From NCBI GenBank assembly GCA_046861655.1, contig JBHIAI010000007.1, forward strand, positions 1-39,388: a stretch of 39,388 bases of DNA, written 5' to 3'. This DNA is from Fidelibacterota bacterium. Lineage in GTDB: Bacteria; Fidelibacterota; Marinisomatia; Marinisomatales; S15-B10. Within the stretch, counting starts at the first letter, position 1; each line of letters opens with the position of its first letter. The translations under genes and the position numbers were made by a program. This document shows, piece by piece, positions 1 to 15,417 of this stretch. The notes under the pieces are model-generated. The model was not told the origin of the DNA. It did not search any database and worked only from the letters and a program-made list of their open reading frames with translations.

Positions 1-186
1 GTCCAGGGGACTGGCTACATCCGGCACCTCCAGATAGGAACACCGTATGACAGATTCGCCACCGCGTTCCTTTCCGGAAGAGAAATGCAGAACCTGGCTC
101 TCGCCAGCCGGCCGGTCACTGTTCTTCCCAAACAGGGTATGCCCATTCCGGGTGGAATCCGGGAGGGCTACGATCAGATCACACAT
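1..186 (-). CDS. Secernin-like / peptidase C69 family Ntn-hydrolase, N-terminal part only (runs off the window start)
   Basis: Not in the ORF track. Manual translation from ATG at 186 gives MCDLIVALPDSTRNGHTLFGKNSDRPAGESQVLHF, with Cys2 and the FGKNSDRP motif typical of secernin/C69 enzymes. GGAGAG lies upstream. Confidence 0.8.
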   Translation of the reverse strand, partial: MCDLIVALPDSTRNGHTLFGKNSDRPAGESQVLHFSSGKERGGESVIRCSYLEVPDVASPLD

Positions 187-237
187 GATTTCTTTTGACT
201 CTCCCCTTTCGCCCTGGAGAAAACATGACCGGCAACT

Positions 238-1608
238 TCACACCGCAAGCTCTTTCATAAAATCCCCCACCTCGTCCATTTCTTCACACGCGTATATCAT
301 GTCCCGAATGCTTTTTCTGCGGTCGGCGGACAGGATCTGGCGAGCCAGAGAATCGAATTTGACCTCCAGATCCTTTTCCGTCATGGGCTCCCGGGGATCT
401 CCCTTGGGATACTCCAGGTACACCGAACGTTCCAGGCCGTCCCTGGTGCGAATCGTTACGCGGGATGGCTGCTTTTCCGGAAAGAGATCCTCGAAATCTT
501 TGCTGGCTTCTCCCTTGATGGTGTGAATGACTTCCTTCAGGCGGGGATCCTCGATTTTCCCCCGCGAAAAACTGGCAGGGGTGATCTCCCGGTCAAGGAG
601 GGCCCGGGCGATACAATAGGGAAGAGAGTGGTCCGCCGTTTCCCGCGTTTCAGGCTGGTACTTCTGGGGATCGAACAGAATATCGCAGGCTCTGGCAATG
701 GTAGTGACCCTCACCTCTTCGATTTCCTCCGGTTTGATGTCGTTTTCCTTCACCAATTTCAGGGTGGCAGACAGGTGGGTATGGGTGAGGGCCTCCGTGG
801 GAAACGCCTTCATGGAACACTCCAGGATCTTGAACGACTCCCCCAGTCCACCCACAAGTTTTTCCTTGTCCCAGTCCGGTCCCAGGACCTCCAGGAGTCC
901 CTCCTTCCCCTCCACAATGGCTTCCGTTCCCGTGTAGCCTTTCTGGGCAAGAAGGGCGGCGACAACGCCTGCCTGGACGGCCATGGGGTCCACCGTGTTC
1001 TTCATCATGGTGAGCCGACCGGCGGTCACCGCACCCGCCGTGTAATTGTGACTGGCACAAATGCCCATAGCATTGACCATCTGGTCCTCCGTCAGGCCCA
1101 GGACTTTACCGGCAACGATGGGGGATACAAACTGGGTCAACGTGGCGTGGTGCCACTTCCGTTCCCGGATGCCGGGAACGGCGAATTCACACAACCTCAT
1201 CTCAAACTCATACCCTAACACAATGGCGACGATCACCTCTTTCATGGAGGCCTTCATCCGTTCCCCCATTGCCAGAGCGGCTGGGATGAGGTCCGAAGGG
1301 TGGCTGGGGTCCTGTTTCCAGTAGATATCATTGTAGTCCAGGGCACGAATCATGAGGGAGTTCAGGAAAGCCCCGTTGGCCGCCGGCATCCTGTCTCCAA
1401 ACCCTATGACGGTCGCCTCGGGTCTGCCTCCCATGTCCATCATGACCTCCCGGACGATGGTCACATCTTCCGTACGGTAGGCTCCATAGGCACACCCCAG
1501 GGAATCGTAAAGAAACCGCTTCACCTCGTGAACGACTTCCTGTGGAAGGTCTTCATACGTCAGCTCCACGCTGAACCGGGCCATGATTCTTGATAAGGAA
1601 TCGGTCAT
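238..1608 (-). CDS. prpD: MmgE/PrpD family dehydratase (2-methylcitrate dehydratase-like)
   Basis: 456 aa; motifs DSLGC, RALDYND, SHPSD, KAFP, ETADHSLPY, PKGDPREPM. Family is secure, substrate is not. Confidence 0.85.
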   Translation of the reverse strand: MTDSLSRIMARFSVELTYEDLPQEVVHEVKRFLYDSLGCAYGAYRTEDVTIVREVMMDMGGRPEATVIGFGDRMPAANGAFLNSLMIRALDYNDIYWKQDPSHPSDLIPAALAMGERMKASMKEVIVAIVLGYEFEMRLCEFAVPGIRERKWHHATLTQFVSPIVAGKVLGLTEDQMVNAMGICASHNYTAGAVTAGRLTMMKNTVDPMAVQAGVVAALLAQKGYTGTEAIVEGKEGLLEVLGPDWDKEKLVGGLGESFKILECSMKAFPTEALTHTHLSATLKLVKENDIKPEEIEEVRVTTIARACDILFDPQKYQPETRETADHSLPYCIARALLDREITPASFSRGKIEDPRLKEVIHTIKGEASKDFEDLFPEKQPSRVTIRTRDGLERSVYLEYPKGDPREPMTEKDLEVKFDSLARQILSADRRKSIRDMIYACEEMDEVGDFMKELAV

Positions 1609-1617
1609 GACGACTTC

Positions 1618-2736
1618 TCAGAAGTGAGAAACAACGGCTTCTGCAACCTCAAGACTGGTATTGTCCCCTCCCACGTCATAAGTCCTCACTTTTCCTTCCG
1701 CGATGACCTGGGCCACTCCCTTTTCCAGTCTGGCCGCCTTGTCCGTCTCCCCCAACCATTCCAGCATCATCCGTGCAGTCAGGATCATGGCAGTGGGATT
1801 GACCTTATACTGCCCCGCGTATTTCGGTGCCGAACCGTGGGTGGGCTCGAAAACGGCATAGGTATCCCCTATGTTGGCGCTGCAGGCGAATCCCAGTCCC
1901 CCTACCAGCTGGGCAGACAAGTCGGACAGGATATCCCCAAACATGTTCTCGGCCACAAGAATCTCAAAGTCCTGGGGATTTTTCACCAGCCACATGCACT
2001 GGGCGTCGATATTGGTTTCTTTCAGCTCAATATCCGGGTAGTCTTTTGCCACCTCCCTGGCGGTGCGGATCATGAGCCCTCCCGTTTCTCTCAACACGTT
2101 CGGCTTGTCCACCACGGTCACAGTTTTCCGGCCCGTCTTTCTTGCATAATCGAACCCCTGGGTAACGATATTCCTGCAGGCCTGCCGGCTCATGATGCGA
2201 CTGGACAGGGCGACATTCTCCATCCCGAACGCCCGGAACTTCTTCGCCTTGGGATGATGTCTGTCCAGGACGTCGAATACTTCCTGGGGGAGTGGGAAGA
2301 ATTCCACACCGCTGTACAGTCCTTCCGTGTTTTCTCGGAATATTACGATGTCGATGTCGTCCCGGTAATTGAGGGGATTGCCGGCGTACGCCTTGCACGG
2401 TCTTATGTTGGTATGAAGGTTGAATTCCTGTCTGAGCTGCACGATGGGACTGAAATAGACATATCCTTTTCCCCGAAGTTCGGGGTTCAGCTCTTCAGCC
2501 GCTTCCTCTTTCGGCTTGGATGTAATGGCCCCGAACAGAGCGCAGTCTGTTTCCCGCATCAGTGCCTTAGTCCGGTCCGGAAGGGCGTTCCCTTCCGACT
2601 TCCAGAATTCCCATCCGATGTCTCCATCAATGTAGTCTGCGTCAAATTCCAGGGCGTCCAGCACCCGCCGGGCGCATTCCATCACATCATGGCCCACCCC
2701 GTCACCGGGAAGCCAGGCCACTCGATACTTAGCCAT
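1618..2736 (-). CDS. Isocitrate/isopropylmalate/homoisocitrate dehydrogenase family beta-decarboxylating dehydrogenase
   Basis: 372 aa; PGDGVG, SPIVQLR, NIRP, RENTEGLY, KPNV, NMFGDILSD, FEPTHGSAPKYAG, NPTAMIL. Confidence 0.9.
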   Translation of the reverse strand: MAKYRVAWLPGDGVGHDVMECARRVLDALEFDADYIDGDIGWEFWKSEGNALPDRTKALMRETDCALFGAITSKPKEEAAEELNPELRGKGYVYFSPIVQLRQEFNLHTNIRPCKAYAGNPLNYRDDIDIVIFRENTEGLYSGVEFFPLPQEVFDVLDRHHPKAKKFRAFGMENVALSSRIMSRQACRNIVTQGFDYARKTGRKTVTVVDKPNVLRETGGLMIRTAREVAKDYPDIELKETNIDAQCMWLVKNPQDFEILVAENMFGDILSDLSAQLVGGLGFACSANIGDTYAVFEPTHGSAPKYAGQYKVNPTAMILTARMMLEWLGETDKAARLEKGVAQVIAEGKVRTYDVGGDNTSLEVAEAVVSHF

Positions 2737-2753
2737 ACGTCATCTCCACGTGT

Positions 2754-3935
2754 TCAGAAACTGTGAACGGGTGAAATGATCCCAACCTCGTTCTCAAACT
2801 CCGGAAATCTTTCGCCCAGCGACCTCGAAAACGCCGATTGCAGCCCTTTCCGGTCGCCCTCTGGCAGGTGACGCCCAAGGGCCAATTTCACCAATATGAG
2901 TTTATGGTGCCTCGCCATGACAACACGCAAATCGTGAAAAGAACGGACATCGGGATACAGTTCCATCAAGTCGGTGAGAACCTGTTTGACCTTCTGGGCC
3001 TCCAGACCGCTGGTGGTCACCGGATCCACATGTACGGTGACGTGGGCATGAAGGTCCTTGGTGATGGCCCGTGTCACGCTGCTGGCCATATCATGGGCCC
3101 GTATTTGACTCGCCCCTTGGTCCACCTCCATGTGAAGGGAAATATACCGGGTCGCACCGTACGAGTGCACCACAATGTGGTGGACATCCACCACCCCATC
3201 GATGCCCCGGGCTGTCCGGCGAATTCTTTCCACCACCTCAGGACCGGGAGCGACCCCAAGGAGGGTCCAGATGGCGTCCCGGCCGAGGGAAAACCCCACC
3301 CAAACGATAAAGAAGCCGACGCCCATCCCCAGAACACCGTCCCAGACCACCCACCCCCTGTTAGCCAGGGCCATGGACGCAAGGGGAGCCAGGGACGAAA
3401 ACACGTCAGACCGATGGTGCCAGGCGTCAGCCACAAGGACGTCGGAATCAATCAGACGGCCCAAGCTTCGGGAAAACCGGGCCATCAGCTCCTTCACTCC
3501 CGCCGTTACCAGGAGGATACCGAACATCAAGGGACTGGCATTCACAATGCCCGGCGATTGAATGCGTCCCAGGGACGAACGGATGAATTCCGCACCACCC
3601 ACAACAACGAGCATGGAGAGAATCAAGGTGCCGATGTACTCAGCCCTCCCGTGGCCGTAGGGGTGTTCTTCATCCCCGGGCTTGCTGGACACCTTGAAAA
3701 CGAAGATGAGACCGAAAGAGGTTACACTGTCTGCCAGAGTGTGAAAGGCGTCGGCCAGGAGGGCTATACTTTGAATGGCCAGGGCCATGACCATTTTTGC
3801 GGCGAACATGAGGAGGTTCAGCACACCCGAAAGAATACCCTCAAGCAGGCCCACCTTTCGCCGGGCAGCCAGAGAAGAAAAATCCGAAATATCAGGAAAG
3901 AGGGCGACCACCAGTCTGGAGGAGTTACCCCTCAC
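2754..3935 (-). CDS. Cation diffusion facilitator (FieF-like) transporter
   Basis: [33 protein letters not shown], plus C-terminal dimerisation domain(s). Start moved from 3962 to the GTG at 3935, which overlaps the upstream TGA (GTGA coupling). Confidence 0.88.
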
Positions 3936-5926
3936 GGATTGAGAAGCCTTTCCTTCACCCACTTTTCCAATCCACCTGACAGGATGAGCTCCTGGGCCGT
4001 GGTTCCCACGGCCTTGAAAGGAAAAGATGATTCCTCCACGTGAATAGCGGCCTGTACAAAATCGATTCTTGCCTGAAGGCCAGTCCGGACCGTCAACGAT
4101 TTCTCTCCGAAACGATCCTTAAGATGGCGCACCAGATCGGGGGCATCCAGGGGAAGGAAGCCGTTGTTGATGGCGTTTCGTTTATATGTTGCGCTGAAGG
4201 ACCCCCCTACCACCAGCCGGATTCCACAGTGCAAAAGAGCCGTGGCCGCCTGCTCCCGGGAACTCCCAGTCCCGAAGTTGAATCCCCCTACCAGAATGTC
4301 TCCCGGATTAACCTTCTGGACAAATTCCGGATCATAGTTCTCCATGGCGACTTGAGCTTGTTGCTCTTCCGTGAAATCATCCATGTAGGTATACTTTCCC
4401 GGGAAAATGCCATCCGTGTTGAGATTGTCCTGATGGCAGAACAGTAGCTCCCCTTCAATGTGGTCAGGGAACCCTTTGAGAAGCTCCATCCGGCCGCTCT
4501 CTTTTCTCCCATTTTCTTGGGTTTTGATATCCCAGACCGGTTCCGCCGTGTCGTATTCTTGAGGGCTCGCGATCTTCCCCGCCACCGCGGAGGCCGCCAC
4601 CACCGCCGGGGATGCAAGATAAGCCCGGGCTTCCCGGGAACCCATCCGGCCCTTGAAATTCCGGTTCGTGGCGGAAATCCCCACCTCTCCCGGTTCCAGC
4701 AGTCCCACACCCAGTCCGATACAAGGTCCGCATCCGGGTGGAAGGGGAACGGCCCCGGCCTGGACCAGGTCTGTCCAGTCGCCTCTATTCTCACTTTCCG
4801 CCTGTACCTCACTGGAGGCGGCGGCAATGTAGAACTCCACCGTGGGCGCAACTTTCTTCCCCCGGATCACGCGGGCAGCCTGAGCCAGGTCGTCAACCCG
4901 GCTGTTGACGCACGACACCAGATACGCTTTGTCAATGCGGATGTTTTGCTTTTCAATTTCCGTGACCGTGCTCATGACCTTGACGTGATCCGGACCGGAG
5001 ACGTGAGGCCGGACGGAGGTGAGATCGAGAAACAGCTCCTTGGCGTAGGAGGCATCGGGATCTGCCTGTAACGGTGACGTTTCCAAATCATCCATTCTCT
5101 TGTCATTCAGGCGAGGATGCTCGAAGCTATCTTTGGTACCCGGCTGAACACCCTGGGGAGCCCGGCGACTCACGAATTCCACCCGTGTTCGGAGCCAGCG
5201 TATGGTCACCTCATCTATGGGAAACAGCCCTACCAGTACTCCCCATTCGGTGGTCATGTTGGCGATGGTCAACCGGTCATCGATGGCCAGTTGTCCGATG
5301 CCGTCCCCGGTAAATTCCACCGCATGGTTGAGCACTTCATCCTGGTTGAAAAGACCGCACAGGGTCACAATCACATCCTTCCCCGCCACCCCAGGGGGGA
5401 GTTTCCCCTGAAGTTCCACCCTGGAAACCGGGGGGACCTGCCACCAGGTCTGCCCCGTGGCCCAAAGAGCGGCAGCGTCGGTGCGAACCACGGGTGTACC
5501 CAGACACCCCAGACCGCCGTACATATTGGCATGACTGTCCGAAGCCACCACCATGGTCCCGGGCCAGGCATACCCCTCTTCGCACATGATCTGGTGGCCG
5601 ATTCCCCGGCCAGCAGGATAGAAATCCACACCCATTTCGTCCGCAAATTCCTCAATCCTCCGGTACTTCAAAAGGTTCTCTTCACCCCTGTTCTGAATGT
5701 CGTGATCCAGGGTGAAAACGGCTTGAGCGGGATCGAACAGACTGGTGGCGCCGATCCGGTTGAATTTGGGAATGACGGCACCGGTGTTATCGTGGGTCAT
5801 CACGTAAGACGGCCGGATGAACACATAGTCCCCACTGTGTACTGTCTGACCCGTCCTGAGCCCCACGGCAAAACGCTGGACAATCTTCTCTACCAGCGTC
5901 TGGTTACCGGATGCTCCATGCATCAT
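3932..5926 (-). CDS. lysF: Single-chain homoaconitase (fungal Lys4/LysF type; large and swivel domains fused)
   Basis: 664 aa; MTHDN, LDHDIQN, GIGHQ, ASDSH, [4Fe-4S] ligands LVSCVNSR and [19 protein letters not shown]; swivel domain [13 protein letters not shown] and NFGTGSSRE. Confidence 0.85.
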
Positions 5927-5968
5927 ACTGGATCCTGGAAGCTCAATTCGCCTGGCGGAATCCGTGGT

Positions 5969-6502
5969 TCAGCTTTTGAACGGTTCGAAGGAGACGAAAT
6001 CCGCGTGATGGGCGATGATGGATTCCACGGTCCTCTTTCCGAGCTCACCCTCGGAAGAATGGGTGGCGATGATATGCTGCACCTCAGGGGAAAGATCGAA
6101 CCGATCGGCCAGGGCAACCCCGCTGAAGGGGTGCCTTAATAGTCTTCCCTCGTTAGTCGTGGCCAGCTTGCCTCCGGCCGTTTTGTATTCCAGGACCTTT
6201 CCCACATCCATCAGGATGGCCCCTGCGATCAGGATGTCCATGTCAATTTCGATTTCATCACCAAAATTCTGCTTCATGATCTTTGCCATTTCCACCGCCA
6301 GATGTACTGTGGTGCGCTTGTGATTCATGAACGAAATCTTGCAGTCCTTGATCAGAAGAGAAAAGGGAATGTTCCTGAGATCATCGGCACCCAGGGTACT
6401 CCTTTCGAGTGCGTAGGCCCAGCACCGGGTTACCTTCTCCCTGAGGTCCCTGTCCTCAATCCATTCGATCTCAGGCCATAGTTCGAGGATTTCTTTGCTC
6501 AT
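5969..6502 (-). CDS. HD-superfamily phosphohydrolase-like protein with a variant HD doublet (MD)
   Basis: 177 aa; NH...GAILMDVGK...RHPFSG...IIATHS...HHAD follows HD/HDIG spacing. GGAG RBS upstream. Confidence 0.75.
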   Translation of the reverse strand: MSKEILELWPEIEWIEDRDLREKVTRCWAYALERSTLGADDLRNIPFSLLIKDCKISFMNHKRTTVHLAVEMAKIMKQNFGDEIEIDMDILIAGAILMDVGKVLEYKTAGGKLATTNEGRLLRHPFSGVALADRFDLSPEVQHIIATHSSEGELGKRTVESIIAHHADFVSFEPFKS

Positions 6503-6515
6503 GAGTTCTCCTCTC

Positions 6516-8108
6516 TTAGGCCGGCCCGGGGTTTACAGGCTTTAGGCCTCTTACCCTGTGGATGGAGTCCAAAACGGTCCCATCCACCCACTTGGTCACA
6601 CCGATAATCTTATCCGTCACATCCGGCTTCTGGGGAGGACCTCCGCAGAGCTCCTCCACTTCCTCCTTGATCTCGCGGATATCCCGGATGGGAAGACGGC
6701 TGTTTCGAGTGGCCTTGATCAAATCGTCCCGCCGGGGATTGATGGCGACGCCCCTTTCAGTCACCACCACATCCACAAGCTCTCCCGGGCCGCACAGGGT
6801 GGTGACCTCGTCCACCAGGATGGGAATCCGGTTTCTGAAGGAGGGAATGGCCAGAATGGTGCATCCGCTGAACAGGCAATTCTGCCAGCCCCCGATGCCG
6901 TGAAGCAGGATTCCATCCGAATGAGTGACCACGTTGGCATTGAACTGGACATCCACCTCCGTAGCGCCCAACACGGCCACATCCACCATGGTTGAGAAGT
7001 TTCCCTTTCCGTGCCAGTTGTACGATGTAAAAGGGGAGGTGTTGATATGGTTGGGATTCTCCCGCATGGAACGGACCCCGTGCAGATCGAAGGTTTGGCC
7101 GTCCAGAATGTAGTCGGTGAGACCCTCCTCAAGCATCTCCACCAAGTATCGTGTGGATCCTCCCCGGATGAACCTGGCCTTGACTCCCGCTTTTTTCATC
7201 AACTCCTTCAGGTATGCGGCAAACGCCAGTGCGGTGCCTCCGGCCCCTGCCTGGAAACTGAACCCGTCAGCCATGATGCCCGCTTCCCGAATGAACCTTG
7301 CCGTCAATTCCGCGATGTGGAGACGATCGGGAGACCGGGTCAGGCGGGTGGTCCCCGAAACAATCTTTTCCGGATCCCCTATACGGTCCATCACCACGAC
7401 GAAATCCACATTCTGCCCCTGGATCTGCCAGGGGACGCAGGGGAAGGGCACGAGATTGTCCGTGACCACGATAACTCGGTCGGCGTAGAGGGAATCGACC
7501 AGCCCGAATCCGAGAAGACCGCAGGCGGAGGGCCCGCGGTCTCCCGTGGCGTTTCCGAAGGAATCTGCCGTGGGAGCCGCCAGTATGGCAATGTCGATGT
7601 GGACTTCCCCATCCTGAACCGCCTGCCATCGACCCCCGTGGCTCCGGAGGACGGCCTTCCCGCCCATGCCCCCCGCGGATGCAAACCGGCCCAAGGGACC
7701 ATTGAGAGACCCTTCCACCCAGCTCACCACACCCTTTTTCATGTGGTCAATGACAGGTTCGTGACATGGAAATGACGCTGAAGGGAACCATCGCACTCCT
7801 CTAATCCCCATCCGGGACATGACCTCAAAAACCTGGTTCATCAACAGGTCCCCGTTTCGAAAATGGTGGTGGGAGGAGACCGTCATACCGTCCTTCAGTC
7901 CACAGGCCTCCAGGGCCTCCCGGAGCGAAGGCACCAGTTTATTCCCATCGGACGGGTAGTCCGAGCAGGTCTGGATCGGGAGGGCGGCTTGGGAACCGGA
8001 GGGCCGGTGTTTCCCCACCCCCTTGAACGGAACCTGCGGTACACCGTTCACCCGGGCCGGCACCTGCCGGCCCGCCGCATTGGTGACCATGTCCTCTGCC
8101 CGGGTCAA
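6516..8108 (-). CDS. citF: Citrate lyase alpha subunit-like (family II CoA/ACP transferase)
   Basis: 530 aa; GLKDGMTVSSHHHFRNGD, RSHGGR, GFSFQAGAGG, EVDVQFNANV, VVVTERGVAINPRR, DGTVLDSI. The TTG start overlaps the upstream TGA. Confidence 0.88.
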   Translation of the reverse strand: MTRAEDMVTNAAGRQVPARVNGVPQVPFKGVGKHRPSGSQAALPIQTCSDYPSDGNKLVPSLREALEACGLKDGMTVSSHHHFRNGDLLMNQVFEVMSRMGIRGVRWFPSASFPCHEPVIDHMKKGVVSWVEGSLNGPLGRFASAGGMGGKAVLRSHGGRWQAVQDGEVHIDIAILAAPTADSFGNATGDRGPSACGLLGFGLVDSLYADRVIVVTDNLVPFPCVPWQIQGQNVDFVVVMDRIGDPEKIVSGTTRLTRSPDRLHIAELTARFIREAGIMADGFSFQAGAGGTALAFAAYLKELMKKAGVKARFIRGGSTRYLVEMLEEGLTDYILDGQTFDLHGVRSMRENPNHINTSPFTSYNWHGKGNFSTMVDVAVLGATEVDVQFNANVVTHSDGILLHGIGGWQNCLFSGCTILAIPSFRNRIPILVDEVTTLCGPGELVDVVVTERGVAINPRRDDLIKATRNSRLPIRDIREIKEEVEELCGGPPQKPDVTDKIIGVTKWVDGTVLDSIHRVRGLKPVNPGPA

Positions 8109-9316
8109 GACCGTCGTCTCCAGTTCCGGGGGAGCTGTCCGGTAGCCACGGCCAGATCCACGGTCCGGAGAGCCCGTTTCACCACGGGGGGATCGATCAT
8201 TTTGCTTCCCAAGGAAACCACTCCCACCCCATTCTTCTCCGCTTCACGATAGGCACGAACGATCTCCTTCGCCCTTTCAATCTCGGCTGATGTGGGGGAA
8301 ATAGCCTCATGAATGACACGGATCTGCCGGGGGTGAATACACCCAACCCCGTCAAATCCCAGCGACTTTCCATCCTTCACAAACCTGCGCAATCCCTCCA
8401 CATCGTCCACGTCGCTGAACACCGAATCGATGGCCTGAATTCCTGCCGCCCGGGCGGCGTTCACCACCGTGGTCCGGGCCATGAATGACTCCCGGCCCCC
8501 TTCGGTCCGCTCGGTACCCAGATCCGCGCTGTAGTCTTCCAGCCCGATGGCCAGAGCCACGTTCCGTGCCGAGGCCTCGGCAATCTCCAGGGCCTTCAAC
8601 ACCCCCCGGGCAGTTTCAACGATGGGCATGAGATACACAGGATCTTTCCGACCGCTTTCTTCAGCGATCGCTCTTGCACGGCTGTCCACTTCCCGGATCT
8701 GATCCGCCCCTTCCGATTTCGGGATGAGGACGACGTGAACGTTGTGAGGGACAATAAAGAAGAGATCTTCCAGTCCACGGTCTCCCTGGTTGATACGGAC
8801 CATGCGCTCTGCCCCGAAGAAGTCCACGGATCTGAGGGCGTTTCTCACCACAAACCGGGTGGCTTCCTTTTCTCCTGGTGCCACGGAATCTTCCAGGTCA
8901 AGAATGATGGCATCCGGCCCGTGGATTCCTGCGTTAAGCATCAATTTGGGCTGATTCCCCGGAACGTACAGACGACTTCGCCGGAACCTGTCACGGCGGG
9001 TTTTCCCCTGACAGAAGGGTTTCATTTCCGGCAGGTATTCCTCTTCGATTGTCCGTTTGGCCTTTTTGACCGCCGCCTCAATTCTTGCAGACACCACAAA
9101 GGGAACGGCACCAAAGTCCTCCAGGACCAGTGTCCCCGAATCCACGCCGAGGGCCCGGCACACGGTCTCCGCCTGGACCTTCAAGGCCTTCCCGTACAAG
9201 CGCTCCACCTTACTTTTCACATCGATGGAAAGGGGCTGCCGCGCGAGGTTGTAGGAAACCCTAAGGTCCGACCGGACCCTGTCTCCCCTCGGGCCCACTG
9301 TGAATGTACGAGTCAC
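8105..9316 (-). CDS. citE: Fusion of citrate-lyase ACP (gamma, CitD-like) and citryl-CoA lyase (beta, CitE/HpcH-HpaI fold)
   Basis: The N-terminal ~90 aa resemble CitD (VRSD, SKVERLYG, EDFGAVPFVVSARIEAAV). The C-terminal part resembles CitE (RRSRLYVPG, ILDLEDSV, VRIN, IPK, IVETARG, GLEDY, IHPRQI, MIDPP). Confidence 0.88.
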   Translation of the reverse strand: MTRTFTVGPRGDRVRSDLRVSYNLARQPLSIDVKSKVERLYGKALKVQAETVCRALGVDSGTLVLEDFGAVPFVVSARIEAAVKKAKRTIEEEYLPEMKPFCQGKTRRDRFRRSRLYVPGNQPKLMLNAGIHGPDAIILDLEDSVAPGEKEATRFVVRNALRSVDFFGAERMVRINQGDRGLEDLFFIVPHNVHVVLIPKSEGADQIREVDSRARAIAEESGRKDPVYLMPIVETARGVLKALEIAEASARNVALAIGLEDYSADLGTERTEGGRESFMARTTVVNAARAAGIQAIDSVFSDVDDVEGLRRFVKDGKSLGFDGVGCIHPRQIRVIHEAISPTSAEIERAKEIVRAYREAEKNGVGVVSLGSKMIDPPVVKRALRTVDLAVATGQLPRNWRRRS

Positions 9317-9320
9317 CTAT

Positions 9321-10001
9321 TTATAGCAGTCCGTGATCGGCAAAGGAAAAATGGGTTTCGCCCGCGATGATGATATGATCGTGAACCACAACGTCCACTG
9401 CATTCATAGCAGCCTTTAGTTTCTCAGTAATCTGAAGATCTTCCTGGGACGGATGGGTGTTTCCCGAGGGATGGTTGTGAACGAATACCACCGCCGCGGC
9501 ATTGTTGGCCAGAGTCCGTTTCACCACCTCCCGCGGGTAAACGGCGGATGTGTTGAGGGTCCCTTCGAACAGTTCCTCAGATGAAAGGATCTGGTTCCGG
9601 CCGTTTAAGAAGACAACCATGAAGACCTCCCGGACCCTGTCCCTGAGACTGACCTTCAGGTAGTCCACTACAGCCTGGGAGGATTTCAGGAATTCTTTTG
9701 CCTCAATCCGCTCCGACAGATAATGGCGGGACAGGTCCCGGACCAGTTTGAGTCCGAACACGTTGTTGGGACCTATCCCCTTGATCTTGCCGAGATCCTC
9801 TGGACTCGCTTCCAGAACCCCTCTTAAGGAACCGAATTTCTCAATGGCCAATTTCGCCGGCGTCTTGCAGTCCTTCCTGGGAGTTCCGAGGGTTAGAAGA
9901 AGTTCCACGATTTCGTAGTCATGGAACCCTGACAATCCCGCCCGGATGAATTTCTCCCGAAGCCTCTGCCGGTGTCCCCGGGCAAGATCGTCATCCGTCA
10001 T
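9321..10001 (-). CDS. radC: RadC family protein (HhH + JAB/MPN domain)
   Basis: GHRQRLR, YEIVELLL, IKGIG, VYPREV, HNHPSG, PSQED, DHIII. Confidence 0.93.
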   Translation of the reverse strand: MTDDDLARGHRQRLREKFIRAGLSGFHDYEIVELLLTLGTPRKDCKTPAKLAIEKFGSLRGVLEASPEDLGKIKGIGPNNVFGLKLVRDLSRHYLSERIEAKEFLKSSQAVVDYLKVSLRDRVREVFMVVFLNGRNQILSSEELFEGTLNTSAVYPREVVKRTLANNAAAVVFVHNHPSGNTHPSQEDLQITEKLKAAMNAVDVVVHDHIIIAGETHFSFADHGLL

Positions 10002-10998
10002 GATTCCTCTCCCGTAGGGACTCCCTCTTCGAGAACTCCATCAGTTTAGCTTTGAACTCTCTCAGTTCCCTCACGTTGCCGGGTTCGATTTCACCCGATG
10101 CCCATTTCAGATCGAAATCTTCGGGGGAATCGGCACCTCCTTGCTTCTGATAAAGGGAATAGAGTTCATCGGAACGCCGGGCCTTATTCTTATTGAGCGT
10201 GACCACGATCCTGTAGTTCACATCATCCAGAATATCACCCACAATCCGGGCAGGAACCCTCCTGCGCAACATGACCTGCTCCAGGTTTGACAGGACCCAC
10301 CCACTCATCTGGTAGTCCTCAAAGGCCTCAAAAGCCATGGGTGCAACCTTCTTGACCAGGACCGCCATGGCCTTCGCGTACTCCCTTATCTCGTACTGAG
10401 CGTGGTCATCCATGCGCAGTTTCAAGAAATGGAAGATATTGTGCAGATCGTTCTTCCAGTACCACTGCGTGTACAGATTGACGGGGAGTACGGCTCGAGC
10501 AAGCTCCCGGGCAATGCCCAATTCATTCAGCTCAGAGTACAGGGCAAAACTCTTTTCGGATATTTCCCGGAAATAGCGTACCACTTTATCCGTCAGATCT
10601 TGGGGAACGTCCGACTCCCTGCGTCCCTGTTTGTTGAGCTTACTCTGAAAATGGATGAGCCCTGGGTCAGGGATGTAGAATTCATCCCTGGCTTCAGAGT
10701 AGCGCAGACTGTATTCGTTGATGTTCGCCGTCCTGTGCCGCACCCACTGCCTGGCCACGAAGATGGGCATTTTGGCATGGAACTTCAATTCCACCATTTC
10801 AAACGGAGTGGTGTGCTGGTGGCGCATCAGGTAACGGATCAGACCCCGGTCCTGGGACACCTTCCGGGTCCCCTTCCCATAGCTCACCCGGGCTGCCTGC
10901 ACAATGGCCTCATCCCCACCCATGGTGTCCACCAGCCGGAGGAACCCTTTGTCCAGACACTGGATGGCCCCCTCCGGAATCCGGGGATCGTCAGGCAT
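9991..10998 (-). CDS. thyX: FAD-dependent thymidylate synthase with C-terminal extension
   Basis: IVQAARVSY, HTTPFE, RQWVRHRTANINEYSLRY (ThyX motif RHRx7S), ELAR, HAQYEIR. Confidence 0.95.
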   Translation of the reverse strand: MPDDPRIPEGAIQCLDKGFLRLVDTMGGDEAIVQAARVSYGKGTRKVSQDRGLIRYLMRHQHTTPFEMVELKFHAKMPIFVARQWVRHRTANINEYSLRYSEARDEFYIPDPGLIHFQSKLNKQGRRESDVPQDLTDKVVRYFREISEKSFALYSELNELGIARELARAVLPVNLYTQWYWKNDLHNIFHFLKLRMDDHAQYEIREYAKAMAVLVKKVAPMAFEAFEDYQMSGWVLSNLEQVMLRRRVPARIVGDILDDVNYRIVVTLNKNKARRSDELYSLYQKQGGADSPEDFDLKWASGEIEPGNVRELREFKAKLMEFSKRESLRERNHDG

Positions 10999-11827
10999 GG
11001 GGCACTTTGCCCCCGGTCAGGATGTTCAAAGTGGCATTCACAGCCTCCGGGTTTCCCGCGACCAAACCGAAGGGAATCCTCGTCTTCGGGTTGTTGTAAG
11101 TAACGGGTTCCCCCCTCAAACTCACCATGATCCCGCCGGCTTCGGCCACCAGACAGTGACCGCCGCATACGTCCCACTCATTCTTTGGACGAAGAGATGC
11201 GAACACGTCCCCCCTCCCGGCAGCAGTCAGGCCCAGCTTGTAGCTCACGCTTCCCACCGATTTCAGCTTCCGAAAACGGTTCTCAAACTTTCGCCACAAT
11301 CCGTTCCTGGATTCTGTCCGGCTCATCAGGATCTCCATGCCACCTGGATCGGATTGAGAGGAACACCGGATGGGATCTCCGTTCAGAGTGGCACCCTGTC
11401 CTTGGGCCGATGCAAACAGCTCCCCCGTAACCGGATTGAAAAGTACGCCCACGATGGGATGGTGATTCTCCACCAGGGCGACGCTCACCACAAAGTTTGG
11501 GACCCCTTCAATGAATTCCTTGGTGCCATCCAGGGGATCCACCACCCATACCCTCTCCTTGGTCAATCTCTCCCGGGAATCCACGGTTTCTTCGGACAAC
11601 CACCCGTAATCAGGGAACTCTGAGAGGAGAATCTCTTTCAAACGGTCATTGGAGGCGTGATCGGCAGTCGTAACGGGATTCTTTGCTGCCGCCCCTCGCC
11701 GCCGGAGGGTGGGCATCCTGCCCGTGCGGGATTTGTCCAGGACCGCGTAGTCGGACCGGTAATAACGGAGAATGATGTCACCAGCTTTCCTGGCGGCCTC
11801 TGTAGCGATTTTCAATTCCCGTTTCAC
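10991..11827 (-). CDS. cysQ: 3'(2'),5'-bisphosphate nucleotidase / inositol monophosphatase family
   Basis: PVTTAD, LSEE, WVVDPLDGTKEF, EWD, EAGG. Confidence 0.85.
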   Translation of the reverse strand: MKRELKIATEAARKAGDIILRYYRSDYAVLDKSRTGRMPTLRRRGAAAKNPVTTADHASNDRLKEILLSEFPDYGWLSEETVDSRERLTKERVWVVDPLDGTKEFIEGVPNFVVSVALVENHHPIVGVLFNPVTGELFASAQGQGATLNGDPIRCSSQSDPGGMEILMSRTESRNGLWRKFENRFRKLKSVGSVSYKLGLTAAGRGDVFASLRPKNEWDVCGGHCLVAEAGGIMVSLRGEPVTYNNPKTRIPFGLVAGNPEAVNATLNILTGGKVPHA

Positions 11828-11906
11828 GACGAAAACTTAAGGGTTGGCAAAGCAAAAGGTGACAGAAATTTCGCCGTGAAAACGGGCTTTACTACCGAAA
11901 TCTCCC

Positions 11907-14105
11907 TTAACGACTCGTTGAATCGGCCCCCGGGGGATGCTTTTCCGCTTCTCCCCTCATGACGGTGCCCAGGAGGGCAAGGTTTTTCAGAGAGGCCGTG
12001 GTTTCTTCCCACCCCCGGGTCTTGAGTCCGCAATCCGGGTTGATCCACAGATTCTCTCGGGGTAGGACCCGGGAAGCTCTCTCCATGATCTCCCGCATAT
12101 CTTCCAGCCTGGGAACGGCGGTGGAATGGATATCCCAGACACCCAGCCCAATCTGCCGATCGAAATCGATTTTCTCAAAACTTTCGATGACACCACCCCG
12201 GCTCCGGGTGGCTTCGATGAAAATGGCGTCGAAGTCAAGCTGGGCTATCCTGTCGATGATATTCCCAAACTCGGAGTAGCACATGTGGGTGTGAATCCGG
12301 GTTTCCGGCCGGGCCCCGGTGGCCAGTCTGAACGCTTTTATGGCCCACCGGAAATAGGCGTCCCAGTCCCCCCGTTTTATGGGTGCCTTTTCCCTGAAAG
12401 CCGGTTCGTCCACCTGAACGATCTGAATGCCCGCCTGCTCATAATCTGAGATTTCATCCCGCAAGCAGAGGGCGATCTGGTAAGCAACCTTCTCCACCGG
12501 AATATCCTCCCGAACGAAACTCCAGGCCAGAATCGTAACCGGACCGGTCAGCATCCCCTTTACCGGTCTGTCCGTCAAACTTTGGGCAAAGGCGATTTCC
12601 TCAATGGTCAACGGCCGGGGACGGGAGACATCCCCGTAGATGATGGGGGGCCGATACCCCCGGGTTCCGTATGAGAGGATCCACCCACTCCGGGTCGTGG
12701 CGATCCCCTCAAGTTGTTCGGCGAAGAATTCCACCATATCCGATCGCTCAAACTCCCCGTGAACCAGCACATCCAGTCCCATCCCTTCCTGCATCCGGAT
12801 GAGTTCTGTGATTTTCTCCCTGATAAAGGATGTGTACGCTTCTTCCGTTAGATCCCCTCTCCGGAAAGCGGCTCGCTTCTTTCGGATTTCGGACGTCTGG
12901 GGAAAACTTCCAATGGTGGTCGTGGGATACACCGGCAGCGGGAGCTTCTCCTGCTGAATGGACTTCCTTTCCGAATAATCCTTGTCCCGGGAAAAGTCAA
13001 CTTCCGTCAGGGCCTCAACCCGCATTCGCACCGCCGGGTTCACCCCGAAGTCCGGCGCGCCATGGCCTTCCCCGGTCCTTTCTCCGTGGTGGGCCTGGAC
13101 AATCGCCGACAGTTCCACCAACCGTTCCTCAGCAAAAGCGAGCCGTTTCACGAGTTCCGGGTCGAGTTCTTCGTTTTCCACCGTTACGGGCAGATGGTAC
13201 AGGGGAGCCGCGTTAGAGATGGCCAGCTGACGGGCGTACCCCGAAAGTTCTTCCACCCTCTCTGCCGCCCGGTCGATAGGGGTTCGCCACACATTCCTGC
13301 CGTCCACCAGTCCGGCGATGAGCACCTTATCATCCGGAAACCCTGCATTTTTCAGGTGGTCAAGGTTGTCCTTTCCGTGCACGAAATCCAGCCCGATCCC
13401 GTCCACGGGAAGGGCGAAGAGCTCCTCCGGAAAATCGATGCTGTCATAGTAGGTAAACACGTAAAGCCGGCAACCGGTCTCGGACAGGATTCTGTAGGCC
13501 TCCCGGAGGGCGGCGATCTCCCCGGGAGTCAATTCCATGACAAACGCCGGTTCGTCGATGTGAATCTCTTCACACTCCTGAATCATCTGCCGGTATACGT
13601 GGGTCAATTGGAGAAGAATGGGATGGAATCGTTCCGGCGGAACTCCCTTGGTGAGTTTCAGAAACGTAAAGGGACCTATCACATAGGGGATGCCTCCGGA
13701 AAACCTGTCCCTGTATTCAGCGGGCTTGTTCCAGTTCAGGCTCAGGGAGTCGGGTTTCACCCGGGACCAATCGGTGACCAGATAGTGGTAGTTGGTATTG
13801 AACCATTTGGTGAGTTCCAGGGCCTGCCTGCCCCTGCAGAGGTCATAGTACGCCTTGAGATCCCCGGGTCGATACAATCCGGTCATGATGGCCGTATCCA
13901 GCATGGAGTCATAAAAGGTCATTTCGCCCACGGGAAAACTGTCCACAGACCGTTGGTAGGTGGCGATCATGTCGCTCTGGATGTCATCCAGGGCGGTTCT
14001 GAGCTCACCTTCGGAAATCTTCCCTTTCCAGAACCCTTCGACGGATCGTTTATATTCGCGCTTTCTTCCCAGTCTCGGAAGACCATAGGCGTACGTTTTG
14101 ACCAT
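11907..14105 (-). CDS. metE: Cobalamin-independent methionine synthase
   Basis: GLPRLG, KWFNTNYHY, TTTIGSFPQT, HGEFERSDMVEFF; Zn ligands HTHMCY, IE and NPDCGLKTR. Start set at ATG 14105 (GGAG RBS), not the TTG at 14132. Confidence 0.96.
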   Translation of the reverse strand: MVKTYAYGLPRLGRKREYKRSVEGFWKGKISEGELRTALDDIQSDMIATYQRSVDSFPVGEMTFYDSMLDTAIMTGLYRPGDLKAYYDLCRGRQALELTKWFNTNYHYLVTDWSRVKPDSLSLNWNKPAEYRDRFSGGIPYVIGPFTFLKLTKGVPPERFHPILLQLTHVYRQMIQECEEIHIDEPAFVMELTPGEIAALREAYRILSETGCRLYVFTYYDSIDFPEELFALPVDGIGLDFVHGKDNLDHLKNAGFPDDKVLIAGLVDGRNVWRTPIDRAAERVEELSGYARQLAISNAAPLYHLPVTVENEELDPELVKRLAFAEERLVELSAIVQAHHGERTGEGHGAPDFGVNPAVRMRVEALTEVDFSRDKDYSERKSIQQEKLPLPVYPTTTIGSFPQTSEIRKKRAAFRRGDLTEEAYTSFIREKITELIRMQEGMGLDVLVHGEFERSDMVEFFAEQLEGIATTRSGWILSYGTRGYRPPIIYGDVSRPRPLTIEEIAFAQSLTDRPVKGMLTGPVTILAWSFVREDIPVEKVAYQIALCLRDEISDYEQAGIQIVQVDEPAFREKAPIKRGDWDAYFRWAIKAFRLATGARPETRIHTHMCYSEFGNIIDRIAQLDFDAIFIEATRSRGGVIESFEKIDFDRQIGLGVWDIHSTAVPRLEDMREIMERASRVLPRENLWINPDCGLKTRGWEETTASLKNLALLGTVMRGEAEKHPPGADSTSR

Positions 14106-14122
14106 CGTCTTTCTCCCTAAGT

Positions 14123-14152
14123 AATAAAACAAAAGCCGGTGCTTTCCGGCTT
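14123..14152 (-). terminator. Intrinsic terminator (attenuator) in the metE leader
   Basis: Minus strand reads AAGCCGG-AAAGCA-CCGGCTT followed by TTGTTTTATT: a perfect 7-bp stem plus U tract, located between the aptamer and the RBS. Confidence 0.8.
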
Positions 14153-14158
14153 CTGGTA

Positions 14159-14209
14159 CCTTTTTAGCACCTTGTTTTCGGTCGCGGCAATACGGCTCAA
14201 ATCACGACC
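14159..14209 (-). ncRNA. SAM-II (SAM_alpha) riboswitch aptamer
   Basis: Minus strand GGUCGUGAUUUGAGCCGUAUUGCCGCGACCGAAAACAAGGUGCUAAAAAGG. P1 is GGUCGU/GCGACC; it has the hallmark GAUUU, CCGUAUUGC and GCUAAA elements and pseudoknot pairing UGCC/GGUG, directly upstream of metE. Confidence 0.88.
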
Positions 14210-14214
14210 CCTGA

Positions 14215-14243
14215 AGTTTACCAATCTTTTTGTTTCCAGGCAA
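14215..14243 (-). promoter_or_regulatory. Sigma70-type promoter for the metE leader
   Basis: TTGCCT-17 nt-TAAACT with an extended -10 TG; the predicted +1 falls at the 5' end of the riboswitch. Confidence 0.7.
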
Positions 14244-14469
14244 CGCCCTTGTGTCCGTTGTTTTATCCCGGTGGAAAACGTGAACATCTACGCGTTTTGA
14301 TGATCTGTTCCATCGTTCGGGCGATTTTTTTCGGTCAGACTCGGCAGCTTGAAATCTTGCTGCAAAAGTGATTCATGTGTGTTAGTATCATTTGCCGGTA
14401 TCAAGAGACGATATGGGTGAATCCTGAATCACCGATGTTCTAGAGTAATACCGCATAGGACTGCTGAAG

Positions 14470-15417
14470 ATGAATCTGACGGTCTCAATCGTGTTCTTTG
14501 TGATCGGACTTGGGTTGATCATCTGGTTCGCCGAGCGGCTGGTCAAAGGGGTGGTCCGGACTTCTTTGGGGTTTGGGATTTCCGCCTTCCTGGTTAGCGT
14601 CCTTTTTGTCGGCTTCGATCCCGAGAATCTCGCTCTGGGAGCGGTGGCTTCTTTTGAAGGAGTGGCAGGCATCGCATTGGGCTCGATTGTCGGTGCTGCC
14701 ATGGTCGCCATGGCTCTGGCTTTCGGGATAACGGCCCTGATTGCTCCCATGGAGTTCAGGCAAGCGCCGAAGCCGGTGCTCGCCGTGCCCATCCTGGCCA
14801 TCCTGCTTCTGGGTCTGGTGAGTGTTGATGGCGAGCTATCACGTCTGGATGGCGGCATCCTACTCCTAGGATTCTCGCTCTCCGTCCTGTATCTGTTGAG
14901 ATTGACCAAGAAAGGGGTGGACATCCATCCCACGGGAGAAGTCGCTGAAACGCTGGAAGAAGCAGAAGGAGGCAGCAAATGGAAAGCCTTTGGGCTGCTC
15001 CTTCTTTCCCTGGCCGGGATTATCGCGGGAAGCGAAATGCTGCTGGCCGGGTCCCGGGTCGTAATTGGGGGTCTTGGGCTGTCCGAAACGGTCTTTGGCA
15101 TGACCATCCTGGCGCTGCTGGTAAGCATTGAAGAGCTGGCCCGGGAGCTGCCCGCCGAGCGCCGGGGAAGACCGGACATAAGTTACGGGAATGTCGCGGG
15201 TTCGATCCTGGCTTTCTTCCTCTTTAACGCGGGAATCATCGCTTCGGTCCATCCTGTTCCCGTGAGCGATCAGGTCCTTGTGTTCTACCTTCCCATGGGG
15301 CTTATGACAACGCTCGTAGTATCGGCATTCATGCTGCGCCGGAAGGTTTCCCGGTGGGCGGGCGGTGTTCTCCTGGGGCTCTACCTGATCTTTTTCGTCG
15401 GCGGCTATCTCCTGTAG
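14470..15417 (+). CDS. Divergent Ca2+/cation antiporter (CaCA, YrbG-like) membrane protein
   Basis: 315 aa, about 10 TM helices in two similar halves; IALGSIVGA and ISYGNVAGS, DGELSRLDG, SETVFGMTILA. Confidence 0.8.
   Translation: MNLTVSIVFFVIGLGLIIWFAERLVKGVVRTSLGFGISAFLVSVLFVGFDPENLALGAVASFEGVAGIALGSIVGAAMVAMALAFGITALIAPMEFRQAPKPVLAVPILAILLLGLVSVDGELSRLDGGILLLGFSLSVLYLLRLTKKGVDIHPTGEVAETLEEAEGGSKWKAFGLLLLSLAGIIAGSEMLLAGSRVVIGGLGLSETVFGMTILALLVSIEELARELPAERRGRPDISYGNVAGSILAFFLFNAGIIASVHPVPVSDQVLVFYLPMGLMTTLVVSAFMLRRKVSRWAGGVLLGLYLIFFVGGYLL

Follow-up and report, generated by a model that had tools for sequence, protein, structure and literature searches.

What would a bacterium do with a citrate-lyase-type complex, a homoaconitase-type hydratase, a protein of the MmgE/PrpD family and a β-decarboxylating dehydrogenase encoded side by side? 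The question is raised by seven co-oriented genes on the reverse strand (positions 238 to 9316) of contig JBHIAI010000007.1 from a Fidelibacterota bacterium, a stretch of 39,388 nucleotides that was analysed whole and is called the window here. Our comparisons suggest that these genes may form a self-contained organic-acid module linking 2-oxoadipate with 2-oxoglutarate and acetate via homocitrate-like C7 acids, a reading to which we would give about even weight for and against. The homocitrate series is favoured because relatives of the hydratase and the dehydrogenase sit in a lysine operon, because the specificity loop of the dehydrogenase lacks the isocitrate-binding Asn, and because canonical enzymes of the citrate branch coexist with the module.

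The window is contig C95 of our genome G000, an assembly of 2.06 Mb in 198 contigs with an estimated completeness of 92.8%, to which all gene absences reported below for this genome are subject and which keeps them short of proof. Its DNA was present in 4 metagenome runs of one study, labelled hydrothermal vent, and no RNA run carrying it was found among the runs listed. Families were assigned to the open reading frames (ORFs) of the window with Pfam and NCBIfam profiles (42 ORFs scanned, 11 + 31).

A conserved and re-assorted gene set

The genes and families were found as originally described, with the run starting at a fusion of an acyl carrier protein (ACP) to CitE (ACP-CitE) and continuing through CitF, a small HD-domain gene, the hydratase, a cation diffusion facilitator (CDF) gene, the dehydrogenase and the PrpD-like gene across junctions of -4, +13, +42, -31, +17 and +9 nt, the largest gap thus being 42 nt. 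Similarly close, co-oriented packing extends upstream to radC (9321-10001, gap 4), thyX (overlap 11), an inositol-monophosphatase-family gene (overlap 8) and metE (gap 79), and since it continues into unrelated housekeeping genes, spacing by itself is no evidence of an operon. Operon limits were also not indicated by a promoter and terminator consensus scan of positions 1-14600, which gave 5 promoter-like and 18 terminator-like matches where 6.2 and 16.0 were expected from shuffles. The grouping is nevertheless beyond chance, and it is conservation rather than spacing that shows this.

To survey conservation, one genome per species was scanned for CitF relatives, of which 246 were confirmed, and the best 80 of these 246 loci were used for neighbourhood counts by tblastn of the window proteins, requiring a match that covered at least half of the query. 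In these 80 loci the CitF relatives were 67-89% identical and came mostly from Fidelibacterota, with others labelled Ignavibacteria, Calditrichaeota, Chlorobiota, Aerophobetes and Myxococcales. Partners near CitF were ACP-CitE in 61 loci, HD in 51, the hydratase in 47, the dehydrogenase in 35, the PrpD-like gene in 30 and CDF in 25, counts to be read with many of the loci being cut by contig ends. Among the 38 loci with enough flank (at least 1.4 kb upstream and at least 9 kb downstream of CitF), all five of ACP-CitE, HD, homoaconitase, dehydrogenase and PrpD-like were present in 22, some in 8 and none in 8, so that the enzymes are indeed conserved together.

The same pattern can be followed through the phylum, for which an identical sample of 121 genomes was used in every search, alongside 14 control genomes. 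The hydratase scored above cut-off in 56/121 and CitF in 71/121, with 44 genomes having both, 12 the hydratase alone and 27 CitF alone. The PrpD-like protein (protein query, E <= 1e-60) was found in 56 genomes, 46 with CitF and 10 without, and within the window's own order it was present in all 6 hydratase genomes that have CitF and in none of the 4 that do not. Five or six of the ten CitF-less cases belong to family f14, where the gene stands beside citryl-CoA-lyase-type genes, which leaves four or five cases in other families unexplained.

Gene order varies strongly between these carriers. An Ignavibacteriaceae locus reads HD, hydratase, PrpD-like, ACP-CitE, CitF, and in family f18 (G034, G016) ACP-CitE, CitF, HD and a 78%-identical dehydrogenase stand together with the hydratase and PrpD-like genes elsewhere. 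In G088, from the window's own family, the inositol monophosphatase, thyX and radC genes are followed by the hydratase and dehydrogenase, with the lyase and HD missing at the same syntenic spot. Families f20 and f24 have ACP-CitE/CitF divergent from HD, a split HacA/HacB-type hydratase, in some cases CDF, the dehydrogenase and PrpD-like, or an alternative set of HacA/HacB, CDF, dehydrogenase, HD and a second fused aconitase-family protein of 602 residues that replaces PrpD-like; HacA of these variant clusters scores 480 bits against HacA_Meth (cut-off 550). Family f14 has no CitF and instead carries succinyl-CoA-ligase-like beta and alpha genes, below the succinyl-CoA ligase cut-offs, and a citryl-CoA lyase (NF004869, 277 > 212), followed by HD, HacA, HacB, dehydrogenase and PrpD-like. 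What stays constant is a C-C lyase or synthase, usually HD, a hydratase with a KYTY loop, a second (de)hydratase and the dehydrogenase, with CDF as a frequent companion. The PrpD-like protein is interchangeable with the second aconitase-family protein, and the CitDEF-type lyase with citryl-CoA synthetase/lyase-type genes or, in one lysine operon, with homocitrate synthase. The original prediction of a tricarboxylate chain built on a citrate-lyase-type enzyme, a homoaconitase, a PrpD and a dehydrogenase thus holds as a conserved, re-assorted set, while its parts list needed amending: HD is constant, CDF frequent, and both PrpD-like and the lyase are replaceable.

Two further observations concern the junctions and the reach of the set. 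Small foreign ORFs lie in cluster junctions of relatives (L068:2481-2837; L110:13555-13962; L107:8787-9158; L117:2604-3020, 5516-5899 and 8077-8472), including a 23S-rRNA-intervening-sequence protein (PF05635), a four-helix-bundle protein (TIGR02436), a GxxExxY protein, DUF559, an IS200-type transposase and a methyltransferase fragment, and they account for the variable gaps among ACP-CitE, CitF and the hydratase subunits there. At Myxococcales/Polyangiaceae loci (L059:6970-8790, and L078) another fused aconitase-family protein (606 aa, ~30% identical to the window hydratase) lies directly upstream of ACP-CitE/CitF, so the pairing of lyase and hydratase also occurs outside the FCB group.

Predicted steps between 2-oxoadipate and 2-oxoglutarate

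In the proposed pathway the dehydrogenase would interconvert 2-oxoadipate, CO2 and NAD(P)H with homoisocitrate, the Lys4-type hydratase homoisocitrate with cis-homoaconitate and the PrpD-like protein cis-homoaconitate with homocitrate, which ACP-CitE and CitF would split into, or assemble from, acetate and 2-oxoglutarate, CitF exchanging the acyl group on the carrier and CitE then cleaving or forming the C-C bond. Among the options originally offered, this homocitrate/2-oxoadipate route is the best supported, through its relatives in a LysW-type operon and through the dehydrogenase loop.

The dehydrogenase (1618-2736, 372 aa; PF00180, 296.9 bits) is a member of the Iso_dh family that resembles homoisocitrate dehydrogenase (HICDH) and falls below every equivalog cut-off considered. 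Its closest NCBIfam model is the homoisocitrate dehydrogenase AksF2 (343.7 against a cut-off of 540), with AksF at 288.5 (500) and iso_homocit_dh at 169.3 (680), and the best isocitrate dehydrogenase (ICDH) equivalog, NF006529, reaches 297.5 against 510. The closest solved structure is Thermus HICDH (3asj, 241.7 bits), with NAD-type ICDHs at ~226-231. In PDB and HMMER alignments the specificity loop reads S-P-I-V-Q-L-R in the window enzyme, S-x-N-V-x-L-R in ICDHs and G-A-I-R-Y-L-R in Thermus HICDH, and the form S-P-I-V-x-(L/M)-R is kept in 34/34 full-length cluster homologues, of both the 372- and the 398-residue types (a 35th row was incomplete and lacked the loop region). Ile therefore replaces, in the window enzyme and in all 34, the ICDH Asn (E. 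coli N115 position) which we take to bind the gamma-carboxylate of isocitrate, and Val stands in the window enzyme where Thermus HICDH has Arg85, a residue whose change to Val reportedly abolishes the use of isocitrate and keeps that of homoisocitrate. Only one other Iso_dh protein is encoded in the genome (G000:C113:7495-8514; L005:1468-2529, -; 353 aa). It passes no equivalog, has isopropylmalate and tartrate dehydrogenases as its nearest relatives and carries GSILSS in place of the metal-binding Asp motif GDILSD, and it is probably no normal decarboxylating dehydrogenase.

The hydratase (3932-5926, 664 aa), a fusion of large and small aconitase domains (Aconitase plus Aconitase_C) of the fungal Lys4 homoaconitase type, passes the homoaconitase equivalog TIGR00139 with 916 bits against a cut-off of 529.9. 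Relatives 66-79% identical occur in Neomarinimicrobiota/Fidelibacterota, Zixibacteria and KSB1, where the source records name them homoaconitase. The swivel-domain loop that sets specificity in methanogen enzymes reads KYTY here, as it does in the split HacB-like subunit of f20; elsewhere the loop is RYLA (second fused aconitase-family protein), YLRT (homoaconitase of methanogens) or YLVY (isopropylmalate/citramalate isomerase).

Both enzymes have relatives in an informative place. G064, a genome of the window's order, carries on one strand LysX, an ArgC/LysY-like gene, LysZ, a LysJ-like gene, LysK, a homocitrate-synthase-like gene (TIGR02146, 406.4; cut-off 413.55), a Lys4-type hydratase (TIGR00139, 660.9), a dehydrogenase and an aminotransferase, with no lyase, HD or PrpD-like gene in this LysW-type operon. 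Its hydratase is 49% identical to that of the window, with RFTY as its loop, and its dehydrogenase is 62% identical, has the loop S-P-I-L-Q-I-R and nests in the 372-residue clade of a quick maximum-likelihood tree of 43 rows (SH-aLRT support 99 and 92). The same genome has, besides this operon (L106), a lysA above cut-off (G064:C9:51852-53045, 356.5 bits), which may mean that lysine is made there in two ways or that the LysW system has another function.

The PrpD-like protein (238-1608, 456 aa; PF03972, 242.9 bits, and PF19305, 145.4 bits, for its N and C domains) is not a PrpD orthologue as judged by its scores, failing the PrpD equivalogs (83 bits for a cut-off of 950, 75.4 for 575 and 55 for 458); against PDB sequences it gave 99 bits for IDS-epimerase, 94 for cis-aconitate decarboxylase and 52 for PrpD. 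We propose it as the dehydratase for the half-reaction between the citrate-type and the aconitate-type acid. A role as an itaconate-forming cis-aconitate decarboxylase was rejected, with the 94 bits being close to the 99 of IDS-epimerase and no itaconate CoA-transferase or hydratase found, and so was a methylcitrate cycle, with no PrpB or PrpC found and a dehydrogenase that could not oxidise methylisocitrate. Beside the gene, and 52 nt past its stop, lies the start-bearing part of another one (1-186, reverse strand, beginning MCDLIVALPDS) that runs off the contig end and whose 62 visible residues matched no Pfam family.

The lyase itself is made of two genes. ACP-CitE (8105-9316, 403 aa) joins a citrate-lyase-type carrier (residues ~16-91; PF06857, 46.8 > 25.1 bits) to a CitE-type C-C lyase (residues ~110-393; PF03328, 184.5 bits), stays below equivalog level in both parts (TIGR01588 citE, 283.1 against 443.4; TIGR01608 citD, 38 against 63.5), and has CLYBL and Deinococcus CitE as its closest solved structures. 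A Ser within an (R/K)SD motif, conserved in 56/57 aligned homologues, is presumably the prosthetic-group serine of CitD (Ser14). CitF (6516-8108, 530 aa; PF04223, 454.8 bits), an acyl-ACP (or CoA):carboxylate transferase and lyase alpha subunit, scores 489.1 against TIGR01584, ~12 bits under the cut-off of 501.45. Neither CitG nor CitX was found in G000, CitC is represented by a 28-bit partial domain match only, and CitG occurs in 0/121 phylum genomes though 71 have CitF; it is possible that the complex uses free acetyl-CoA. The lyase may instead cleave citrate to acetate and oxaloacetate, the known activity of the CitDEF family and here a prediction by analogy.

The small HD/HDIG-domain metalloprotein (5969-6502, 177 aa; PF01966, 32 bits; TIGR00277, 32.7 bits) has no solved or named relative, its best PDB match being YhaM at E 0.013 and its Atlas clusters consisting of unnamed HD proteins. 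It adjoins the lyase in most lyase-bearing loci examined and also adjoins the citryl-CoA-lyase-type gene in f14. Because it accompanies ACP-type and CoA-type lyases alike, the latter without an ACP, its candidacy as a stand-in for CitG/CitX is weakened, and it is probably not the enzyme that arms the carrier. The CDF transporter (2754-3962, 402 aa; PF01545 and PF16916; TIGR01297, 203 bits) has a C-terminal extension of ~90 residues and lies in or near the cluster in 25/80 loci, including rearranged clusters of f19, f20 and f24. In 6 loci a SufS-like gene follows it; such cysteine-desulfurase-family genes, below equivalog cut-offs, are found at L012:17043-18179, L015:13191-14339, L024:11223-12380 and L107:14359-15507. 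The arrangement suggests that CDF and the desulfurase form a pair moving together with the iron-sulfur hydratase, and our guess is that CDF is linked to iron-sulfur or metal supply.

Most arrangements keep two (de)hydratases beside the lyase, a Lys4-type or split HacAB-type enzyme plus the PrpD-like or the second fused aconitase-family protein, and this mirrors fungi, where two enzymes are needed between homocitrate and homoisocitrate. Stereochemistry offers a possible reason for the company that the PrpD-like protein keeps. The products of HMGL-type synthases, (R)-homocitrate and (R)-citramalate, are substrates of aconitase-family enzymes, while CitE-type citramalate lyase uses (S)-citramalate and the product of the Si-type PrpC requires PrpD before aconitase acts. 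A CitE-type (Si-type) or citryl-CoA-lyase-type enzyme working on 2-oxoglutarate and an acetyl unit would give the opposite homocitrate enantiomer, whose arm due for dehydration would be out of reach of aconitase-type enzymes, and this would explain why the PrpD-like protein or a second specialised aconitase-family protein goes with the lyases and not with the synthase-type lysine operon. The f14 cases of PrpD-like without CitF would fit this idea.

As for direction, we place cleavage, with the module as a 2-oxoadipate sink, slightly ahead of a thioester-free condensation pulled by decarboxylation. Cleavage is the known physiology of both lyase types and would suit a small genome in which ArgB/ArgC-like and HMGL-type genes were not detected and which gives the impression of living on amino acids; with its 2 Mb it seems to be auxotrophic for leucine and arginine, with no matches to the ArgB/LysZ-, ArgC/LysY- or LysX-type proteins of a relative. 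For condensation speaks the replacement of the lyase by a true synthase in G064, together with downstream genes that look as if 2-oxoadipate went on to glutaryl-CoA. An acyl-CoA dehydrogenase directly follows PrpD-like in 17/80 loci (its NCBIfam matches include glutaryl-CoA dehydrogenase at 213-248 bits, all matches being below cut-off), and 2 loci also have genes for E2 of a 2-oxoacid dehydrogenase and for lipoyl synthase downstream. A copy of that acyl-CoA dehydrogenase, 62% identical, lies on another contig of G000, and the neighbourhoods of this orthologue and of E2 (contigs C110 and C162) were uninformative. A bolder version, which we consider speculative and improbable, would have a lyase complex lacking the CitG/CitX-made group condense without ATP or thioester to the wrong-enantiomer homocitrate, with the PrpD-family protein as the missing homocitrate dehydratase, and would lead, with the help of the acyl-CoA dehydrogenase and E2 that neighbour the cluster in relatives, from 2-oxoglutarate through 2-oxoadipate and glutaryl-CoA to crotonyl-CoA, so that glutamate carbon would be oxidised without passing through succinate dehydrogenase.

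Weighing the homocitrate series against its rivals

Several observations count against a homocitrate series, the substrates of which are in every case predicted ones. Neither G000 nor the complete genome G001 has a canonical isocitrate dehydrogenase (IDH), and a monomeric IDH was not found in G000 either. No source or sink of 2-oxoadipate was recognised in G000, where saccharopine dehydrogenase reached a sub-threshold 20.6 bits and LysW-pathway genes were not found; a search of the order for the saccharopine-dehydrogenase domain met a family too broad to inform. In f18, citrate synthase is found in 1/25 genomes and mitochondrial-type aconitase in 0/25, yet 22/25 keep the lyase, 19/25 the hydratase and 21/25 PrpD-like, a distribution to be expected of a system that serves as the citrate branch. 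The dehydrogenase of G064 sits on a long branch, which makes its placement and a shared function insecure and allows for a change of function after recruitment, and the KYTY loop of the window hydratase lacks the Arg of the methanogen YLRT. The stereochemical argument is also not airtight, as f14 pairs PrpD-like with a CoA-type lyase and 10/56 genomes with PrpD-like have no CitF.

The chief rival is a non-canonical citrate branch, in which 2-oxoglutarate and CO2 would be interconverted with isocitrate, cis-aconitate, citrate and finally acetate plus oxaloacetate, either reductively (as part of a reverse tricarboxylic acid (TCA) cycle, or from glutamate to acetate and oxaloacetate or pyruvate) or, where a lineage has no citrate synthase, oxidatively to 2-oxoglutarate. 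We regard this as doubtful but as an alternative to be taken seriously. CitDEF-type and citryl-CoA synthetase/lyase-type enzymes are both known only for citrate and are here attached to the same core of HD, hydratase, dehydrogenase and PrpD-like, and CitF of the window misses the citrate-lyase equivalog by about 12 bits. The f18 genomes keep the system while nearly lacking citrate synthase, their aconitase-family matches being only LeuC-sized and hydratase-sized, and their Iso_dh matches only LeuB-like and cluster-like by score and frame length (not classified by NCBIfam), in both cases among the matches listed. In many f16 genomes, too, the cluster enzyme is the only Iso_dh match at E <= 1e-40 among the matches listed. 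The absence of a canonical IDH from G000 and G001 and the hydrothermal-vent label of the runs that carry the window fit such a branch, and two genome papers guessed at a reverse TCA cycle for the lyase (PMC3362086; PMC5688066).

Against the citrate branch stand the Ile at the site of the isocitrate-binding Asn and the Val at that of Thermus Arg85, the equivalog score that makes the hydratase a Lys4-type homoaconitase, and the relatives of hydratase and dehydrogenase in the aminoadipate operon of G064, a genome that also has an unclassified match of canonical IDH size (466-residue frame). One ordinary aconitase would suffice for both half-reactions on citrate, but the clusters usually retain two enzymes. 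Many genomes moreover encode canonical citrate synthase, aconitase and IDH alongside the module, and this speaks against a redundant role on citrate. In G000 itself the citrate synthase is of type I and the aconitase of the mitochondrial type (TIGR01340, 1097 bits; cut-off 825), the f16 genomes carry an AcnA-sized aconitase and, in 23/24, citrate synthase, and a canonical NADP-IDH accompanies the cluster enzyme in 4/5 relatives examined. The aconitase of G000 lies at G000:C89:4787-6988 (L002:1387-3693), and its mitochondrial type was seen in 43/121 phylum genomes and, among the 14 controls, only in Bacteroides thetaiotaomicron. A replacement of the TCA citrate branch, the other option originally raised, is thus weakened by these NADP-IDH genes and kept alive by f18.

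The module could also serve another substrate series, either longer 2-oxodicarboxylates (2-oxoadipate, 2-oxopimelate and 2-oxosuberate, as for methanogen coenzyme B) or citramalate and methylmalate between pyruvate and 2-oxobutyrate, and this we think improbable. The best NCBIfam models of the dehydrogenase are methanogen AksF2 and AksF, the clusters of f20 and f14 use HacA/HacB-type subunits (HacA_Meth 480, below its cut-off), the hydrophobic Ile and Val of the loop would also suit alkyl chains, and the only other known lyase of the ACP type cleaves (S)-citramalate. No methanogen equivalog was passed, however, whereas the Lys4-type one was; the sole informative genomic context found is that of lysine and aminoadipate; and with no HMGL-type enzyme and no LeuB in G000 a branched-chain context is missing.

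Far less credible is the cluster of G000 as the head of alpha-aminoadipate lysine synthesis, with the lyase standing in for homocitrate synthase. Related hydratases and dehydrogenases do serve the G064 operon, and a domain search found no HMGL-like domain in G000, which therefore has no homocitrate, isopropylmalate or citramalate synthase. Yet LysW was not found in this genome, the LysX, LysY, LysZ, LysK and synthase proteins of G064 had no tblastn match at E <= 1e-5, and lysA passes its cut-off (362.4 > 297.9). Given lysA and the lack of LysW/X/Y/Z/K and of an HMGL-type synthase, the cluster has no role in lysine synthesis in G000, nor does it in most carriers: LysX is above cut-off in 3/121 phylum genomes against 56/121 for the hydratase, and lysA in 69/121, including 24/24 in f16, so lysine synthesis is not its general role, a result that also tells against a homocitrate series. 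The genome-wide check for homocitrate synthase, lysW/X/Z/Y/K, citG/X and icd came back empty, with the partial citC match and the mitochondrial-type aconitase as its positives.

We give equally little credence to there being no single pathway, with ACP-CitE, CitF and HD as a lyase module that functions independently of the paired hydratase and dehydrogenase and merely adjoins them in a compact genome, for although CitF occurs without the Lys4-type hydratase in 27/121 genomes and the reverse in 12/121, f18 keeps hydratase and PrpD-like apart from lyase, HD and dehydrogenase, G088 lacks lyase and HD at the syntenic spot and close packing reaches unrelated genes, the same functions re-assemble in at least 4 gene orders, with non-homologous substitutes, across families and phyla, and many f20 genomes counted as having CitF only carry split HacAB-type hydratases beside the lyase.

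The rest of the window agrees with its first description. Among the 42 ORFs scanned there was no citrate, homocitrate or methylcitrate synthase, prpB, LysW-pathway gene or citC/G/X, and the malate dehydrogenase gene predicted about 10 kb from the cluster corresponds to a lactate/malate-dehydrogenase-family gene at 19184-20119 (forward strand), ~9.9 kb away. The window also codes for several peptidases, among them one of the S9 type at 35472-37451.

Meaning and relation to known systems

Parts of the cluster have been noticed before. As far as the accessible text of the papers goes, CitF and a CitE-CitD fusion of Ignavibacterium album (IALB_1146/1147) were noted in 2012 as citrate lyase with a guess at reverse TCA (PMC3362086), the lyase alone led to the same guess for a Marinimicrobia clade (PMC5688066), and the Melioribacter paper notes only a missing ATP-citrate lyase (PMC3534657). 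Our literature searches found no paper describing the whole cluster, and no textbook operon was matched; the claim that it is undescribed stands as far as these searches reach and gives way for the lyase, which the 2012 paper had already pointed out.

If the homocitrate reading is right, widespread marine, sediment and soil bacteria would have a route between 2-oxoglutarate and 2-oxoadipate that is absent from pathway maps, built by exchanging homocitrate synthase for a citrate-lyase-type complex and aconitase for a PrpD-type enzyme. The metabolism reconstructed for Fidelibacterota/Marinimicrobia, Ignavibacteria and their relatives would have to be revised, with the lyase now being taken as evidence of reverse TCA; homocitrate dehydration, a step with no assigned enzyme, would gain a candidate in the PrpD-like protein; and the citrate-lyase family would gain a new substrate and, with CitG in 0/121 genomes, a new way of arming its carrier. 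If the citrate branch is right instead, it would be a fully non-canonical one, of equal importance for calling carbon fixation from metagenomes. Cultured carriers such as I. album exist, so either reading is directly testable.

Set against known systems, the module shares with each a part and departs from each in its combination. Citrate lyase (CitDEF, EC 4.1.3.6, of Klebsiella and E. coli) consists of the same three families and presumably has the same mechanism, whereas the window has its ACP fused to CitE, all three parts below equivalog cut-offs, no CitG/CitX, and a linkage to homoaconitase, dehydrogenase, PrpD-like and HD in place of a citrate carrier or oxaloacetate decarboxylase. Citramalate lyase (EC 4.1.3.22), to our knowledge the only other ACP-dependent lyase of the CitDEF type, belongs to the methylaspartate fermentation of glutamate and illustrates that the family takes a citrate analogue, in (S) configuration; unlike the window enzyme it works with mesaconase, without aconitase- or PrpD-family enzymes and without a dehydrogenase step.

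The upper alpha-aminoadipate pathway (fungal aconitase and Lys4; Thermus LysS, LysTU and HICDH) shares the Lys4-type homoaconitase, the HICDH-like dehydrogenase and the use of two hydro-lyase enzymes, and differs in that the window has a citrate-lyase-type complex in the synthase's place and a PrpD-family protein in that of fungal aconitase. The 2-methylcitrate cycle (PrpC, PrpD, aconitase) likewise isomerises a citrate analogue with a PrpD-family dehydratase and an aconitase-family hydratase, the configuration set by the Si-type enzyme barring a single aconitase; in the window, by contrast, the PrpD-like protein is far from PrpD, PrpB and PrpC are absent and a dehydrogenase follows, for which methylisocitrate, a tertiary alcohol, would be unusable. 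The citryl-CoA synthetase and the citryl-CoA lyase of the Hydrogenobacter reverse TCA cycle resemble the f14 ligase-like and lyase genes in front of the HD, HacAB, dehydrogenase and PrpD core, an arrangement that differs from that of the window and has homoaconitase- and PrpD-type partners rather than ordinary aconitase and ICDH. Finally, methanogen 2-oxoacid elongation (AksA, AksD/E, AksF) provides the best matches of the window dehydrogenase, AksF2 and AksF, and has HacA/HacB-type subunits in common with the variant clusters, while the window passes no Aks cut-off, is bacterial, has a lyase in place of the AksA synthase and lies outside any coenzyme B context.

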